Shown: piece by piece, positions 47,870-56,012 of the stretch
How the letters are laid out: each line of letters begins with the position of its first letter
Numbering within the stretch: position 1 is the first letter of the stretch
Assembly: GCA_010015585.1 (NCBI GenBank)
Contig: ML975154.1
Source: Eremomyces bilateralis CBS 781.70
Taxonomy: Eukaryota
Length of the DNA stretch: 64,000 nucleotides
Strand: one strand, 5' to 3'
Program-made: the position numbers and the translations under genes
The notes under the pieces: model-generated
The model's database searches: none
What the model was told of the DNA's origin: nothing
The model's input: only the letters and a program-made list of their open reading frames with translations

Positions 47870-48342
47870 CTAGCGGCTCGTACCATTGGGCAAAAGTCCA
47901 CCAATCAGTCCCGGCAGCAACGGCAAAAGCTATATGGCGATCAGTCTTCCTCGTTCTGTCCCTTCGCAGCTCAAGATAGTCCTTCACTCACCGTACTAGC
48001 CGTGTCAATCAAGCTGTGCGTCTGGTTGACGAACCGCGGTGTCAACAGTGCATCAGCCTGCGTGACGACGTTTCCCAGTTTCCCGACCGTATCACCTATT
48101 CCCCCAACACTGCCCAAAAGTTCTCCGAGTCCTCCCGTATCGCGTCCAGACAGGCCACCCAGTCCTTCAGAACTGCCAGAGAAAAGGTCGATCAGTGGCC
48201 CCGCAGCGTTAATGAGTTGCATGATTTTGGCAAGGTCAAGATTTTCAAGGTCGAACTGTGGCTCTGGATTGGGTTTGGGGTTGGGTGTGGCGAGGATGGG
48301 GGTAGTGAAGAGAAGGGGTGCGAGGAGAGATGAGAAGCGCAT
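47870..48342 (-). CDS. Small secreted Gly/Leu-rich protein
   Basis: Signal peptide MRFSSLLAPLLFTTPILA followed by TPNPKPNPEPQ. GTGAGT donor near 47991 and ACTGA..TAG acceptor give last exon LLPLLPGLIGGLLPNGTSR*. TATATAAA on the minus strand near 48460. Confidence 0.75.
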
Positions 48343-49949: not shown

Positions 49950-52900
49950 CTATTGATCAACTTTGTCATCGCACTCCCCGTCTTTAGCTGCCGACGTACC
50001 AATATCAAGCTGCTCTGTCTGCCACTGCATCAATATTGCCGAAGAAGAACGAGTGTAAGCGTGATCAACACCTAAGACATGCTTTCGTAGCATGATGCAT
50101 TGTTCCATTAGATGAATAGCATCCAAATCTCGGCCGGTTCCTTTCCACGTTATGGCCAGGTTGGCCATGCTGCTGAGCGTGTGGGGATGGTCCGCTCCGA
50201 GTTTCTTCTTGCGAGTCTCCATTACTTGCACCTCTAGCTCTTCAGTTACGTCCCACCGGCCTTGATTCCAGTACGTTGACGCCAGGTTGGCCATGCTGGT
50301 CAGCGTGTCGGGATGGTCCGCTCCGAGTTTCTTCCTGCGAGTCTCCATTACTTGCGCATCTAGCTCTTCCGCTGCGTCCCACCGGCCTTGTTTCCAGTAT
50401 GTCGACGCCAGGTTGGCCAGGCTGCTGAGCGTGTCGGGATGGTCCGCTCCGAGTTTCTTCTTGCGAGTCTCCATCACTTGCACCTCTAGCTCTTCGGCTG
50501 CGTCCCACCGGCCTTGATTCCAGTACGTCGACGCCAGGTTGGCCATGCTGCTGAGCGTATGGGGATGGTCCGCTCCGAGTTTCTTCTTGCGAGTCTCCAT
50601 TACTTGCACCTCTAGCTCTTCGGCTGCGTCCCACCGGCCTTGATTCCTGTACGTTATCGCCAAATTGCCCATGCTGCTTAGCATGTCGGGATGGTCCGCT
50701 CCGAGTTTCTTCTTGCGAGTCTCTATTACTTGCACCTCTAGCTCTTCGGCTGCGTCCCACCGGCCTTGTTTCCGGTACGTCGTCGCCAGGTTGGCCATAT
50801 TTCTTAGCGTGTCAAGATGATCCGATCCAATTTTCTTCTTGCTCGTCTCCATTACTTGCACCTCCAGCTCTTCGGCTGCGTCCCACCGGCCTTGATTCCG
50901 GTACGTCGACGCCAGGTTGGCCATGCTGGTCAGCGTGTCTGGATGCTCTAGTCCAAGCAACCTCTTCTTCATTTCGAGAACCTGTGTAAAAGGTCCCTCG
51001 GCCTCATTCCATCTTCCGTCTTCGTAGAGACACGTTCCATATCTCCATAGAAGATCCGTTCTATCCTTCCAATTTCTGTCAACCAGATCTGACTCCAGTA
51101 CATAACGCGTATGTGGCAAATATGTTCTCCAAATGCTCCGATTTTTGTGGTCCGCGTCCGGAAACACTTCTTCTAGTCGCGAAATTGCTTTCTCCATTGA
51201 CCGGACAAGTATCCCTTCGTTTCGAAGCCAGTTGCGCGTAGACAAATGCACTAGCCGATGAACATCGACTGCCAGGTCTGCTGGCCGTCTGCTGATGAAA
51301 GAATACGCGTAAAGCGTTCCGATCGCATCCATTTCCTTCTTCCGTGACAGCCCTGGTGGGAACAGAGACAGCGGAATGTCCTTTGGTTCCACACAGGCCA
51401 TGAACGAGAGGTAATCGGCCGCCAGAGCATCACGACGTCGGATCTGCTCGAATGAGATCAGCCATGTCGTGGCTACGGGATTCTTTACGTTGTGGTATCT
51501 TCCAGCATCTTCAAAGTCCTCACTCAGAATATCGATAGTATCTTCTTCTTGCCCTTTGAGGACAGACAGGTACTCTGTTATAGACGTCCCGTTCTCATTG
51601 ATGTACGCTGCTGCTTGAATGATAGCCAGTGGGAGGTACATAAGCTTTGCAAGCAGGTCTGTTGTGTCTGGTCCCCTGCCAAGGTGATCTTTATTGGCCA
51701 AGCTCTTTCGAAGCAGTTGCATTGCTATTTCTTCATCCATCTCAGTCACCTCCACTATATTTTGCGGTGCGAGCTTGACGGCCGTCTTCCGATCACGCGT
51801 AGTGAAGATGATAGAGCCTTGCTTACTGCTCGGGAGATAGTCGATCAATCGGGAAAGCTCTTGCTCCGGTTCCTCTCGAGGTATAGTTTTGGTAATCCAC
51901 ATGTCCAAGTCATCGGCGTTGTCGAACACAAGCAGCCACTGGCTTGCATTATCTATGCTCAGGTATTCTTGGACCAGTTTCTTCACATCTCTTTGCTCTT
52001 GCTCCCAACCAGGAATTCCCAGTTGCCGCGCAACGTGGACGTAGGCTTGATGAAGATTTTCCATGTTCGTTGCCGGTATCCAGATGATCGAGCAGTTTTG
52101 GAATTTTTCCTTCGTCCGAAACAACAGTTCCAGTACCAGCTGAGTCTTTCCTACTCCCCCAAGTCCCGTCACTGCGATCTTCATTGTGCGATCTTTGGCG
52201 AATAGCTTGCCTTCCAACTGAGCGAGTTGCGATTCGCGACCGGTGAAATGGGGGTTTCTTTCAAAAGGTACAATCCAAGGAGCACCTGCTGGGATGAGCG
52301 ATGCTGGGTTCGAAAACTTTCGGATCTTCCGCTGAAGCCGGTCCAATGCATTGTTCCGTCCTTCGCCGTAAATAAGTGGTATGTAGATTTCGAAAATACC
52401 TAGCAGGCAGTATGCAGCATCTTCTCCGATCGTTGTCTCACGTCTTGCTGCCCATGATAGTCGGTCGGCGATGCTGAATTCAGACATAGGATTTCCTCGA
52501 AGAGCATCAATGGCAATCCCGGTTATCTGATGAACTTGTTGCTCTCGCGATTTCTTATCGCCCAAAGGCTCGCCTTTATAGGAGAAGAATTGGACGGATG
52601 ACGGCGCCAGGAGCTCTTGGAGTGTCCACCCTCGCATGAACCATCGGCTGTTTAGGAATGCTGACTCCGCCGTAGATGTAGGATCCTTCGGGTTAGGAAC
52701 ATCTGAAAGATACACGTAGCACCGAGCAGCTTCACGATACCAGCGAAACATAGAGTTAATCGCCGTCGAGAGTTCGGCGCTGCTTGATCGATCGATGCAA
52801 CACGAATCCACCCAGAAGAATAGGAGACCATCTTTCTCCGCTTGCTTTCCACAAAATAGCAGCTTCTTATATCCAGGTTTGTTGATCCCAGTCTTATTGA

Positions 52901-53033
52901 TGACATCTTTGAAGGTGACCTCCTCGTCATCTGCTCCCCAGGTATGCGAAAGTATGGCATATTCCGGAATGTTATCACCGACACGGTTAATGAGGCGCAG
53001 CTCACCGTCACTATCAATTACCAAAAGACGCAT
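49950..53033 (-). CDS. Fungal NLR: HET domain - NB-ARC - TPR (42-aa kinesin-light-chain-type repeats)
   Basis: HET motifs YAILSHTWG, WVDSCCID..SSAELSTAINSMFRWY, WFMRGWTLQELLAP. NB-ARC motifs FTGRE, P-loop GLGGVGKT, Walker B LLVFDNAD, FTTRD, LPLAIIQAAAYI. Single uninterrupted ORF. Confidence 0.95.
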   Translation of the reverse strand: MRLLVIDSDGELRLINRVGDNIPEYAILSHTWGADDEEVTFKDVINKTGINKPGYKKLLFCGKQAEKDGLLFFWVDSCCIDRSSSAELSTAINSMFRWYREAARCYVYLSDVPNPKDPTSTAESAFLNSRWFMRGWTLQELLAPSSVQFFSYKGEPLGDKKSREQQVHQITGIAIDALRGNPMSEFSIADRLSWAARRETTIGEDAAYCLLGIFEIYIPLIYGEGRNNALDRLQRKIRKFSNPASLIPAGAPWIVPFERNPHFTGRESQLAQLEGKLFAKDRTMKIAVTGLGGVGKTQLVLELLFRTKEKFQNCSIIWIPATNMENLHQAYVHVARQLGIPGWEQEQRDVKKLVQEYLSIDNASQWLLVFDNADDLDMWITKTIPREEPEQELSRLIDYLPSSKQGSIIFTTRDRKTAVKLAPQNIVEVTEMDEEIAMQLLRKSLANKDHLGRGPDTTDLLAKLMYLPLAIIQAAAYINENGTSITEYLSVLKGQEEDTIDILSEDFEDAGRYHNVKNPVATTWLISFEQIRRRDALAADYLSFMACVEPKDIPLSLFPPGLSRKKEMDAIGTLYAYSFISRRPADLAVDVHRLVHLSTRNWLRNEGILVRSMEKAISRLEEVFPDADHKNRSIWRTYLPHTRYVLESDLVDRNWKDRTDLLWRYGTCLYEDGRWNEAEGPFTQVLEMKKRLLGLEHPDTLTSMANLASTYRNQGRWDAAEELEVQVMETSKKKIGSDHLDTLRNMANLATTYRKQGRWDAAEELEVQVIETRKKKLGADHPDMLSSMGNLAITYRNQGRWDAAEELEVQVMETRKKKLGADHPHTLSSMANLASTYWNQGRWDAAEELEVQVMETRKKKLGADHPDTLSSLANLASTYWKQGRWDAAEELDAQVMETRRKKLGADHPDTLTSMANLASTYWNQGRWDVTEELEVQVMETRKKKLGADHPHTLSSMANLAITWKGTGRDLDAIHLMEQCIMLRKHVLGVDHAYTRSSSAILMQWQTEQLDIGTSAAKDGECDDKVDQ
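50150..50990 (-). repeat. Tandem array of about 6.5 highly similar 126-bp (42-aa) TPR-coding units
   Basis: Unit VQVMETRKKKLGADHPDTLSSMANLASTYWNQGRWDAAEELE repeated. Nucleotide identity is visible (gcgtcccaccggccttg recurs every 126 nt). Confidence 0.95.
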
Positions 53034-53495
53034 AATGATCAGCTCATAAGACAATGGGTAAGATTTCTATTGAGACTATACTCGAACATATTGTCTCCTG
53101 ATGAGCAACAGAGATAATAGCCGTAAACTGAAGTCTGAAAGTGAGTTAAGACGTGACATATCGAAAGCAGCACAACAAGGCTGAGTAAGTGAGTTAGCTT
53201 TAATTATGCCTCTAAAAATAAATGAGCGACGCCACATGCTTCACCACCCTGAGTATTTGGTATTATTCCGCATCCTCATCATTCAGGTCATTCTTAAAAC
53301 CTCCACCATCAGCCAGGCTTGGAGTGATTTACGCAGGATTTACATTCATCTAGATACAGAACTCCGTGGATTACCCAGTCCTAAATGCGCCAAATTCGAG
53401 AGATATCCCTTCACCAACATTAAGACCACCATTATAGGGCATTATCGTCGTAAGGAAAATCCAAAGCCAGCCACGGCAGCAGACCCCTTTCCCCA

Positions 53496-56012
53496 TTAAC
53501 GACTCCTCCTAAAGAAGGACCTCCTCTTGTTCGCAGATTTCAACTTCGACCAAAAGCTTTCAACCACCACCATTGCATTCTTGGCCTCTGGAATTTCTTC
53601 CCCACGATGATCGGGGCATCTCCGTATTACGCTTCGCCCCTGTGATTCGCAGAAGAACTCGGACGTATAGAACTCGTGGTACGGCCCGGGAGCGACACAG
53701 ATCCGCTTGACGGCAAACATGCGTACCTGTAGCCAGCACAATTCGCACCAGCGGTACCCGGGGAACTTTTCCGACTTCTTGGAGCTGGATTTCCGCACAA
53801 TCTTGCCGCAAAGCTTGTTGGAGCAGCACACCGTATTGTGCATGTTCGGCCACTCCTCCCGGAATTTGTACTCGCCCGACGAGATCATTGCGCCGTTGCT
53901 CTTGAGATCCAACTTGCGGCAGATGTCATTGCAGGCGTGCGTGGCGAAGAAGAACTTGAACCCTTCCTGGCCAAGGTTAGTGTCCGCTAGCTGGAACCGT
54001 CCGGGATCGAGCGAATGGATGGCCGGGTCAGTAAGTAAGTGTCCAACACCCTGCATGTCGCTGACTAAAAAGCGGCCTTGCGAGCGCTCGAAAGTGAAGT
54101 GCGAGAACGCTTGCGCGGCTTGGTTGAACCGATCATCGGACTGTTCCTCGTTGACATAGCCGCAGTTGTTGTTATACTTGACGTACGTGCCTTCGAGGAA
54201 AGGTTCGAGGGACATGCACTCAGAGCCTGACGTTATCCCCGCTTTGCCCTTCAAGCACGTCGTTACGATGAAGTCAATTGCGTGTTCCTCCCCCGAGAAG
54301 GCGTTGAACTCGAGTGCAAAGGCTTTGCATAGCGCTTGGCACCGCATGTCTTCGGCCAAATGTGCGAGCCGCTTTCCGTCTCGCTTGAATGACTTGACCA
54401 CGAAACGGTTGGTAGAAGCCGCCGTGCGGGCATAAAACGCCTCGCGCAGCGCGCCTTCGGCAAATGGCCGCGACCGCTTGTAGATGGAAAGTTCGGTGAT
54501 ACCCATCATGATGTTGTCGTCATGCGCCATCATTTCGTTGAGGGTACTGGCGTTGTGCACGATAACATCAGGAGAGAAACCTTCTACCGACAGCGCCTCG
54601 TTGAGCCATCCGGGCGTGTCCCACTGGGGTAGGGTGATCTCCAGCCGCTTCTCGTCGCCCTCGTCATCCTCATCCTCGTTGATAGCACGAAGCTTCGCAT
54701 CCTGCTTCTTGTCACCCACTAGCTTGGTCGCTCGGCTCCCCGACACACGAACAGCTGTGCGAGAAGCCGAAGTGGTGACCATTTTGACAACCAGGTGCTG
54801 TAATGCACTAAAAGTAGTTCCGAGCTCATTCTCCTCAAATACCAGCCCGGCTTTGGCGCTGCGCTTAGAACTTGTCCCGCTCCGAGTGCTTGTGTCCGTG
54901 CGCGTGCCCGTGGCCGGATATAAGTAGTATATGTGATCCTTGTGTAGCCTGCAGTCCGCAGAAGCAGCATCGTACTCCTTGCAGAATTCGGTGGCCATAC
55001 GGTCCGTGCTACTGTTGATACGGAGCAGAGTATAGTTGAGTTTGAGGGCGATCATCCGCCTGAGTAGCGGTTTGTGGGTGAGACCGTGTGGCTCAGTTCC
55101 GGGTACGGGGAATTTGTCGCCTGCGTCCGGGACTAATTGTAAATCGCTGCCATGTGGTGGAGCGTCTGCGATATGGATGACGCACCGAGTCTGGTGCGAC
55201 CACGATGCGTTGATGGCTTGTTGAAGACCTCCCAGGACGTCCTCGGGTGCATCGCCCCCGCCGGTAGCTTGTAGCGTGTTAAGAAACCTATGTACTTCAT
55301 CCACGGACGGCGTAAAGTCTAGAAACTGGATATTAGGTTTATCACCGTGGTCCTTATAGCCCACCACCGCGACCCGTACTTCCGCTTCGCCGAGAAACGA
55401 TTCTCCGATGTCTTTCACGATGCTCCTGACTTGGTCCTTTGCGGCGTTAATGTAGTCCCACATGGAGCCAGTGGTGTCAAGGAGGAACAGCAAGTCGGTG
55501 GAGCAGACCGATTTGAATAGTCCTGTCGTCGGACGACGTGGTGCCTTGGCACCTGCCGCCTGCATGTCTTGTTTGAGTTGGAGAATTCGGAGCCGGGCTT
55601 CTGTTGCAGAGAGCTCGCCTTCGTTGCCCTCGCGCTTGAGCCGCTCGACGATGGCTCGTTCCGCCTCGGCGAGGCGTTGAATCTCGGCCGTTCTTGCCCG
55701 TTCTTCCGCAACGGTACGAAGCAGCGAGTCACGTTCCGCCTGGAGCAGCTCCATAGTACTCGAGGTAGCGGATAAGGTCGAGCACGACCACTCACTCGCC
55801 GCATACTTGGAACCTACGGACATGTCGCATTCGGTGGTCGACGAGCCAGGCCCAATGATGACGGGAAATGATGAGGTGGACAATGTTGGGGTTGCGGGAT
55901 CTTCCTCGGTGCGAGAATCCGATGCATTAGAGGAAGTAAGCATGGTGGTATCCGTCGACGTGGTCGACGAGGAATTGTGGGAGGGCGAAGTGTCCTGCAT
56001 TGCGTCTTCCAC
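53496..56012 (-). CDS. vWA-domain alpha-kinase (eEF2K/MHCK family) with N-terminal coiled coil and C-terminal Cys/His-rich region
   Basis: vWA MIDAS DLLFLLDTTGSM, GGGDAPED, IADAPPHG. Alpha-kinase PFAEGALREAF, VVKSFK, EPFLEGTYVKYNNN, QAFSHFTF, LVSDMQGVG..LTDPAIHS, NLGQEG, zinc-binding HACNDIC. Single 838-aa ORF. Confidence 0.93.
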   Translation of the reverse strand: MEDAMQDTSPSHNSSSTTSTDTTMLTSSNASDSRTEEDPATPTLSTSSFPVIIGPGSSTTECDMSVGSKYAASEWSCSTLSATSSTMELLQAERDSLLRTVAEERARTAEIQRLAEAERAIVERLKREGNEGELSATEARLRILQLKQDMQAAGAKAPRRPTTGLFKSVCSTDLLFLLDTTGSMWDYINAAKDQVRSIVKDIGESFLGEAEVRVAVVGYKDHGDKPNIQFLDFTPSVDEVHRFLNTLQATGGGDAPEDVLGGLQQAINASWSHQTRCVIHIADAPPHGSDLQLVPDAGDKFPVPGTEPHGLTHKPLLRRMIALKLNYTLLRINSSTDRMATEFCKEYDAASADCRLHKDHIYYLYPATGTRTDTSTRSGTSSKRSAKAGLVFEENELGTTFSALQHLVVKMVTTSASRTAVRVSGSRATKLVGDKKQDAKLRAINEDEDDEGDEKRLEITLPQWDTPGWLNEALSVEGFSPDVIVHNASTLNEMMAHDDNIMMGITELSIYKRSRPFAEGALREAFYARTAASTNRFVVKSFKRDGKRLAHLAEDMRCQALCKAFALEFNAFSGEEHAIDFIVTTCLKGKAGITSGSECMSLEPFLEGTYVKYNNNCGYVNEEQSDDRFNQAAQAFSHFTFERSQGRFLVSDMQGVGHLLTDPAIHSLDPGRFQLADTNLGQEGFKFFFATHACNDICRKLDLKSNGAMISSGEYKFREEWPNMHNTVCCSNKLCGKIVRKSSSKKSEKFPGYRWCELCWLQVRMFAVKRICVAPGPYHEFYTSEFFCESQGRSVIRRCPDHRGEEIPEAKNAMVVVESFWSKLKSANKRRSFFRRSR

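Follow-up and report, generated by a model that had tools for sequence, protein, structure and literature searches.

Fungal genomes carry dozens to hundreds of genes for NOD-like receptors (NLRs) and HET-domain proteins, and a partner or trigger is known for very few of them. Passages of two accounts (PMC10197012, PMC12881547) describe fungal NLRs as sensing through their repeats and signalling through their N-terminal domain, and present the HET domain as TIR-like and sufficient by itself for death. Two signalling routes are known so far: amyloid templating and, in the case of PLP-1, the binding of SEC-9. PLP-1 is an NB-ARC-TPR NLR, and a het system often consists of two genes in tight linkage, as the same passages report (PMC10197012, PMC12881547). 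Parts of PMC9815663 align the fungal HeLo-like domain with the executioner domain of MLKL, which is switched by a kinase according to a passage of PMC10197012. Here we analyse a stretch of 64,000 nucleotides from Eremomyces bilateralis CBS 781.70 (contig ML975154.1, assembly GCA_010015585.1; hereafter the window), in which the gene for a vWA alpha-kinase is followed immediately downstream by the gene for a HET-NB-ARC-TPR NLR.

The locus consists of two separate, intact, intron-free genes of known families, and either gene taken alone is an ordinary member of its family. A sequence-only reading of the window had proposed that the two may form an immune or cell-death module, in which the kinase could be a guardee, an upstream regulator or a second effector. 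The pair is not a conserved, co-inherited module, and that part of the proposal finds no support. What stands is a link at the level of gene class: relatives of the kinase have death-type or NLR-type neighbours in 6 of 21 informative loci, and elsewhere the catalytic part of the kinase is fused to HeLo-like and PNP_UDP_1 domains. Because the kinase cassette recurs both beside and fused with death domains, a real link is suggested. We put at roughly 50% the chance that the adjacency in the window is an example of an association, loose but real, of this alpha-kinase cassette with fungal death-effector and NLR-type domains. At the family level the link is probably functional; that the two genes of the window act together is possible but somewhat doubtful.

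Death-type genes beside related kinases

A metagenome scan yielded 79 loci, of which 46 (L001 to L046) carry a fungal kinase related to that of the window. Grouping at 95% nucleotide identity leaves 30 non-redundant units. The 21 of them whose flank reaches 1.5 kb or more on one side were treated as informative; together they provide about 219 kb of flanking sequence. All flanking open reading frames (ORFs) of at least 150 amino acids were scanned against Pfam, as were ORFs of at least 120 amino acids in 14 short or cluster-member loci. The six informative units that have a death-type or NLR-type gene (HET, HeLo-like, NACHT or TPR_10) within 5 kb of the kinase mostly have it as the immediate neighbour (Table 1), and they are spread over at least four clades of the kinase. 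By our own grouping, such genes account for 7 of the 43 Pfam-annotated flank genes (binomial P = 2e-5 against a background of 2%, and 5e-3 against 5%). Five of the seven lie less than 1.5 kb from the kinase, a zone that makes up 27% of the flanking bases (P = 0.019).

Deeper scans left these counts as they were. No further HET or NLR match emerged from a relaxed Pfam re-scan of the 37 ORFs without a Pfam match (34 in locus flanks and 3 in the window), or from 219 of the 246 ORFs of 90–149 amino acids within 4 kb of the kinases; the 27 small ORFs outside that scan comprise 25 inside the ORFs of giant ankyrin genes and 2 covered by the earlier Pfam scan.

Several of these loci show features of their own. 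Kinase relics, with pieces in several frames and the vWA part missing, occur at L045:8632-9437 and L046:9869-10914, and the kinase copy at L033:33-1142 ends inside the zinc motif. At L034:8509-9297(+), about 500 bp downstream of the kinase, 31-residue DUF7104 repeats (E = 5e-47) run towards the contig end. Four non-redundant loci, all from one kinase clade, have a giant ankyrin-repeat gene head-to-head with the kinase. Its first exon encodes about 1,300 amino acids and is followed by a second ankyrin exon, with no P-loop. The copies of L009 and L034 are 69% identical, and that of L011 is 36% identical to both over its full length. The N-terminal 460 amino acids have no Pfam match, and their look-alikes in the ESM Atlas are only ankyrin-like (0.91–0.93). 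This gene is a better conserved partner of the kinase than any NLR; the window has no homologue of it.

One locus was recovered from different samples, which permits a population-like comparison. Between L015:12500-13100 and L032, the kinase shows 0–4 differences per 300 nucleotides, whereas the C-terminal half of the adjacent HET ORF shows 18–21, and the HET protein is 88% identical. This local peak of polymorphism in the HET neighbour looks like that of a het locus; the kinase is not polymorphic.

Fusions of the kinase cassette

A Pfam scan of 68 representatives of the kinase family revealed a few architectures in which the pre-kinase stretch, the kinase and the C-terminal Cys/His module are kept and another N-terminus replaces the vWA domain. 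Among them are a Fusarium oxysporum protein (P0291, identical under three accessions) with Helo_like_N (PF17111, E = 9e-10, above the Pfam cutoff) and a Stachybotrys elegans protein (P0276) with PNP_UDP_1 (1.5e-15). A weak PNP_UDP_1 match precedes the cassette in P0285 from Elsinoe batatas, and P0269 carries a Pkinase fragment. Pkinase, PNP_UDP_1, HET and Helo_like_N are all among the 19 Pfam domains listed for the N-termini of fungal NLRs (in the relevant part of PMC9815663). The HeLo-like part of the F. oxysporum protein shares 27% identity with the HeLo-like gene next to the kinase in L041, so that a HeLo-like domain and the kinase are adjacent in one fungus and fused in another.

Both P0285 and P0269, which lack a vWA domain, have Asn at the position of the catalytic Asp652, and P0269 also has Glu at that of Gln654, with the zinc and Cys/His sites kept; judged by these residues, they may be pseudokinases, reminiscent of MLKL. 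Outside the fungi, a protein of the rotifer Brachionus calyciflorus (P0368, 1,205 amino acids) places CIDE-N, an apoptosis-associated domain, ahead of vWA and alpha-kinase. SAM, zf-CCCH or RRM domains occur in other relatives that do not look fungal.

The two genes of the window

The 838 codons given for the kinase ORF in the table are counted from a GTG, and its first ATG is 56000. In the database model (P0001), which is otherwise identical, the start is placed at codon 87 (55754). Pfam assigns the vWA domain by three profiles (VWA_4, 1.6e-14; VWA_2, 1.8e-10; VWA, 3.6e-6) and the catalytic domain by Alpha_kinase (PF02816, E = 5.1e-55, 186.9 bits against a cutoff of 21.3). Among solved structures the latter matches eEF2K (1.6e-27), MHCK-A (2.7e-24), ALPK1 (6e-16) and TRPM7 (1e-15), and K540, D652, Q654, D662 and H692/C694/C698 align with the corresponding stretches of eEF2K and MHCK-A. 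We take the role of each residue (ATP-binding Lys, catalytic Asp-x-Gln, metal-binding Asp and zinc ligands) from the TRPM7 and eEF2K literature. The C-terminal Cys/His-rich module, which matches no Pfam family, is a putative two-site zinc module.

In an alignment with 30 homologues, D179-T-T-x-S183, D254, D283, K540, D652, D662, H692/C694/C698 and the six Cys and two His of the C-terminal module are invariant, and Q654 is nearly so. The 20 checked sites are kept in all 21 alignable kinases of the metagenome loci, except for the last three in the truncated L022. The window ORF thus keeps its alpha-kinase and vWA/MIDAS (metal-ion-dependent adhesion site) motifs intact, with metal binding predicted, and by sequence the protein is VwkA-like: its vWA domain, of a type that docks proteins, has a complete MIDAS, its alpha-kinase domain looks active, and its Cys/His module is conserved.

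The open frame of the NLR gene extends over 53054..49950, with ATG 53033 as the likely start. Its HET match (PF06985, E = 2.4e-12, 47.8 bits against a cutoff of 22.5) covers only profile positions 1–88 of 146, and three HET blocks (YAILSHTWG, FWVDSCCID and RGWTLQE) can be read directly; residues 1–266 are homologous to the HET gene of L041 at 42–44% identity. The Walker B motif is LLVFDN. TPR_10 is matched eight times (2e-99), and at the nucleotide level 50155-50945 is a tandem 126-nucleotide repeat of 6.3 copies with 89% matches. The six near-identical TPR units show 59 synonymous and 130 non-synonymous codon differences among themselves. The protein follows the tripartite plan of an N-terminal effector, a NOD with Walker A and B, and C-terminal repeats, and has homologues with the same three domains. 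The database copy (P0122, 943 amino acids, annotated under Eremomyces bilateralis CBS 781.70 as a HET-domain protein) lacks exactly two 42-residue TPR units of the 1,027-residue frame, around 50400-50700, probably owing to a predicted intron inside the repeat array. Pfam, alignments and direct reading therefore bear out the intact MIDAS, alpha-kinase, zinc, P-loop, Walker B and HET motifs of the sequence-only reading, which had also been right about two long, uninterrupted and co-oriented ORFs about 460 bp apart.

Table 1. Positions of the genes, domains and motifs in the window, and of the death-type, NLR-type and ankyrin genes beside related kinases
Locus	Feature	Position	Strand	Remark
Window	vWA + alpha-kinase + Cys/His-module gene	53496..56012	-	Single uninterrupted ORF, 838 codons from GTG
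Window	vWA domain, residues 173-289	55146..55496	-	Pfam
Window	MIDAS D179-T-T-G-S183 (DxTxS) of the kinase vWA	55464-55478	-	
Window	Alpha-kinase catalytic domain, residues 518-698	53919..54461	-	K540, D652, Q654, D662, zinc ligands H692/C694/C698
Window	C-terminal Cys/His-rich module	53607..53828	-	C730, C735, C756, C759, C772, H779, C799, H802
Window	Spacer, kinase stop to NLR start codon	53034..53495	.	462 bp
Window	HET-NB-ARC-TPR NLR gene	49950..53033	-	Single uninterrupted ORF, 1,027 amino acids from ATG 53033
Window	HET domain core	52701..52961	-	Pfam match, from residue 25 of 1,027
Window	NB-ARC NTPase domain	51639..52235	-	Pfam E = 1e-9
Window	Walker A GLGGVGKT of the NLR	52143-52166	-	
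Window	TPR_10 array, seven 42-residue units, six nearly identical	50136..51017	-	
L015 cluster	HET	445 bp downstream of kinase		Convergent
L011 cluster	HET	1.4 kb downstream of kinase		Convergent
L041	HeLo-like (PF17111)	455 bp downstream of kinase		Convergent
L041	HET	8 kb upstream of kinase		42-44% identical to window HET
L045 cluster	HET	471 bp upstream of kinase		Divergent
L033	TPR_10 array			Convergent to kinase; 44-46% identical to window array
L009	NACHT gene	4 kb downstream of kinase		
L009, L011, L034, L038	Giant ankyrin gene	L009:5416-9291, L011:5284-9354, L034:1189-5166, L038:1-291	-	

The two genes stand in tandem, head-to-tail. Contigs of run X1, which is not labelled as RNA or DNA, span all 7 kb including both spacers at a depth of 53 to about 6,900, and one of them bridges the spacer between the genes; they are uninformative on transcripts, strand and level. 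The description of the surroundings as an accessory stretch found no support: among the 32 window ORFs scanned with Pfam, core genes flank the pair on both sides (Prp9/SF3a60, Yju2, a DEAD-box helicase, NUDIX, Rad17, Rrp15, SRP54 and carbonic anhydrase), and there is no further HET or NLR gene. Besides the TPR repeats and short chance matches, no direct or inverted repeats, which would be a sign of mobile insertion, bracket the pair. In the interval from the NLR to the following core gene, a 123-residue ORF at 47971-48342(-), with a hydrophobic, signal-peptide-like start, Gly/Leu-rich repeats and no Pfam match, may encode a small secreted protein.

Reach of the two families

The kinase family is broad. 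More than 300 homologues of near-equal length and 55–68% identity occur in several ascomycete classes and in Mycena, and 406 cluster representatives are reached at E = 1e-30. A vWA domain precedes the alpha-kinase in nearly all of the 120 listed homologues and in most of the 68 representatives. In a quick IQ-TREE run the window kinase falls near L005 and an Amniculicola protein. The phylogeny of the family departs from the species tree: the kinases of Mycena, a basidiomycete, are 64–67% identical to the window protein and nested among ascomycete sequences, and Hyaloscypha variabilis, Fusarium lateritium and Orbilia brochopaga have two or three paralogues in different clades.

Alternative explanations

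The alternative that survives best is pure coincidence, in which the neighbours are unrelated and their recurrence reflects either dispensable families that gather in plastic regions or the easier detection of long, intron-poor ORFs. A number of observations weigh against the association we favour, and most of them suit coincidence. HET-NB-ARC-TPR genes are very numerous: 7,871 of 8,000 candidate homologues of the NLR pass E = 1e-3, and figures in part of PMC4986451 put fungal STAND NLRs at a mean of 46 per genome and at most 2.3% of proteins. The exact pair is unconserved, the 120 best homologues of the kinase and the 120 best of the NLR sharing no contig other than that of the window. A death-type or NLR-type neighbour is missing in 15 of the 21 informative loci, including L002, L005 and L035, the nearest relatives, whose neighbours are a permease, a transcription factor, an aldo-keto reductase and a P450. 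Neither the type of partner nor its orientation is constant: most neighbours are convergent, one is divergent, and the two genes of the window stand in tandem. The kinase itself is highly conserved (55–68% identity across classes, with all 20 checked sites invariant) and is therefore closer to a housekeeping enzyme than to an arms-race gene. No HET, NACHT or NB-ARC fusion to the kinase occurs among the 68 representatives, and a look at longer, fused forms, which is weak evidence, matched only an unrelated fish vWA protein (P0121), again with none of these three domains. That fish protein joins the vWA subtype VWA_4 (PF25106) with a Het-C domain (PF07217), which has no evident bearing here.

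The counts themselves also call for caution. Four of the six positive loci belong to one series of metagenome records, and two that were counted as positive hold a frameshifted kinase relic (L045) and a fragment (L033). HET and NLR ORFs are long and intron-poor and are detected more easily than intron-rich genes, so their share is inflated. The background rates, both the NLR figures (PMC4986451) and the HET gene counts, are borrowed from other organisms. The sequence-only reading had suggested looking for enrichment of NB-ARC, NACHT and HET genes within 5 kb of such kinases; an excess of death-type and NLR-type genes appears when their share of the flank genes is set against that borrowed 2–5% background, but not in the contrast of near with far flank genes (5 of 18 against 2 of 25; Fisher P = 0.11, not significant).

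Coincidence nevertheless has its own difficulties. The share of death-type and NLR-type genes is well above the 2–5% background, and most of them are immediate neighbours of the kinase. Six loci of the same record series (L017, L027, L036, L046, L019 and L039) are negative, and those genomes are therefore not simply HET-dense. In the window, the sole HET/NLR gene stands among core genes and is the direct neighbour of the kinase. Regional clustering, finally, leaves the HeLo-like and PNP_UDP fusions of the cassette unexplained. We regard coincidence as a plausible explanation, although not the one we favour.

As with PLP-1/SEC-9, the two genes could form a dedicated pair for guarding or allorecognition: the variable TPR array would bind the kinase next door, and an altered or foreign-allele kinase would trigger HET-dependent death. 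This reading is improbable. It would account for the adjacency, co-orientation and 462-bp spacing of the genes and for an array of six near-identical units, a type that diversifies by recombination; passages of PMC12881547 and PMC10197012 supply the precedent of an NB-ARC-TPR NLR that binds a conserved protein, as well as that of tightly linked het pairs, and the HET neighbour at L015 has its peak of polymorphism. However, this NLR type stands beside no other kinase locus examined, and the same pairing did not recur in other species, whereas that of the NLR with SEC-9 recurs in four. The neighbours elsewhere are mostly HET-only or HeLo-like genes without a repeat sensor, and the L015/L032 comparison, the sole one of its kind, shows a kinase that does not vary. 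In an amyloid-signalled effector pair of the NWD2/HET-S type, a short amyloid motif at the N-terminus of the NLR is repeated at the C-terminus of the neighbouring effector. Such a pair is contradicted by the window NLR, whose HET match begins at residue 25 and so leaves no room for the motif, and by its partner, which is a kinase and not a HeLo or PNP_UDP effector.

A possible loose association and what it could mean

We return to the loose association of the kinase cassette with death-type domains, and propose how it might work. By analogy with characterised fungal NLRs, the repetitive TPR array would bind a ligand, after which the NB-ARC domain would oligomerise and the TIR-like HET domain would kill the cell. 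The kinase may belong to the same regulated-cell-death network: its vWA domain would dock on a separately encoded death protein, here the NLR, and the alpha-kinase would then either switch that protein by phosphorylation or itself be watched by the NLR.

A more far-reaching proposal, which we hold only tentatively and consider unlikely, is that the alpha-kinase and Cys/His cassette of this Pezizomycotina family could serve, much as a NOD does, as a so far unrecognised module that controls regulated cell death in fungi. A death effector (HeLo-like/MLKL-like or PNP_UDP) would occupy its N-terminal slot in some members and a vWA adaptor in others. Members with the vWA adaptor would dock on separate HET, HeLo-like, NLR or giant ankyrin proteins, and for that reason the genes of these partners would tend to lie beside that of the kinase. 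The kinase of the window would bind the NLR and either phospho-switch the HET death output or be guarded by the TPR array.

The association of such kinases with death domains is apparently undescribed so far. As the sequence-only reading had supposed, full-text literature searches found no paper describing a unit of NLR and vWA alpha-kinase in fungi, nor any linking alpha-kinases with fungal NLR, HET or HeLo genes, and neither 'Alpha_kinase' nor PF02816 is present in 11 of the 14 supplementary files that accompany the main survey of fungal NLR domains. If the cassette is indeed wired to HET, HeLo-like and PNP_UDP effectors, it would represent a phosphorylation-based branch of fungal cell-death control, parallel to RIPK3-MLKL and ALPK1 of animals, and would offer a conserved, assayable enzyme as an entry point to that control.

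Comparison with known systems

The closest described arrangement is PLP-1/SEC-9 of Neurospora crassa, together with HET-Z of Podospora and the vic loci of Cryphonectria and Botrytis. It too has an NB-ARC-TPR NLR with an N-terminal death domain, which there binds a conserved cellular partner. In the published passages on that system, however, the effector is a patatin rather than HET, the partner is a SNARE rather than a vWA alpha-kinase, and the pairing recurs in four species, whereas the pairing of the window was found at no other locus examined. The HNWD proteins of Podospora anserina (HET-E, HET-D and HET-R) resemble the window NLR in their N-terminal HET domain, central NOD and C-terminal repeats with strong internal conservation, as part of PMC12881547 describes them, six of the seven TPR units being near-identical in our case. 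They have NACHT and WD40 where the window NLR has NB-ARC and TPR. The HNWD ligand HET-C is encoded at an unlinked locus.

For the kinase, the nearest counterpart is VwkA of Dictyostelium, which has the same domain order of an N-terminal vWA followed by an alpha-kinase (architecture from PMC2827801), the likeness being one of domain order. The sources of several fungal homologues give them the name 'Alpha-protein kinase vwkA', and the review discusses no fungal members of the vWA alpha-kinases (PMC2827801). The fungal family adds the conserved C-terminal Cys/His module. VwkA affects myosin II levels and sits on the contractile vacuole, with no cell-death role described.

ALPK1, in the ALPK1-TIFA system, is an alpha-kinase that acts as an innate immune sensor, and tomato Pto is a kinase guarded by the NLR Prf, which is encoded in the same gene cluster; these are animal and plant systems with other domain contexts and serve as analogies only. 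The comparison with MLKL/RIPK3 has to span an alpha-kinase fold and a classical kinase or pseudokinase, and the fusion that invites it stands in other fungi and not in the window. Yet that Fusarium protein joins a HeLo-like domain to a kinase-fold domain, as MLKL does.

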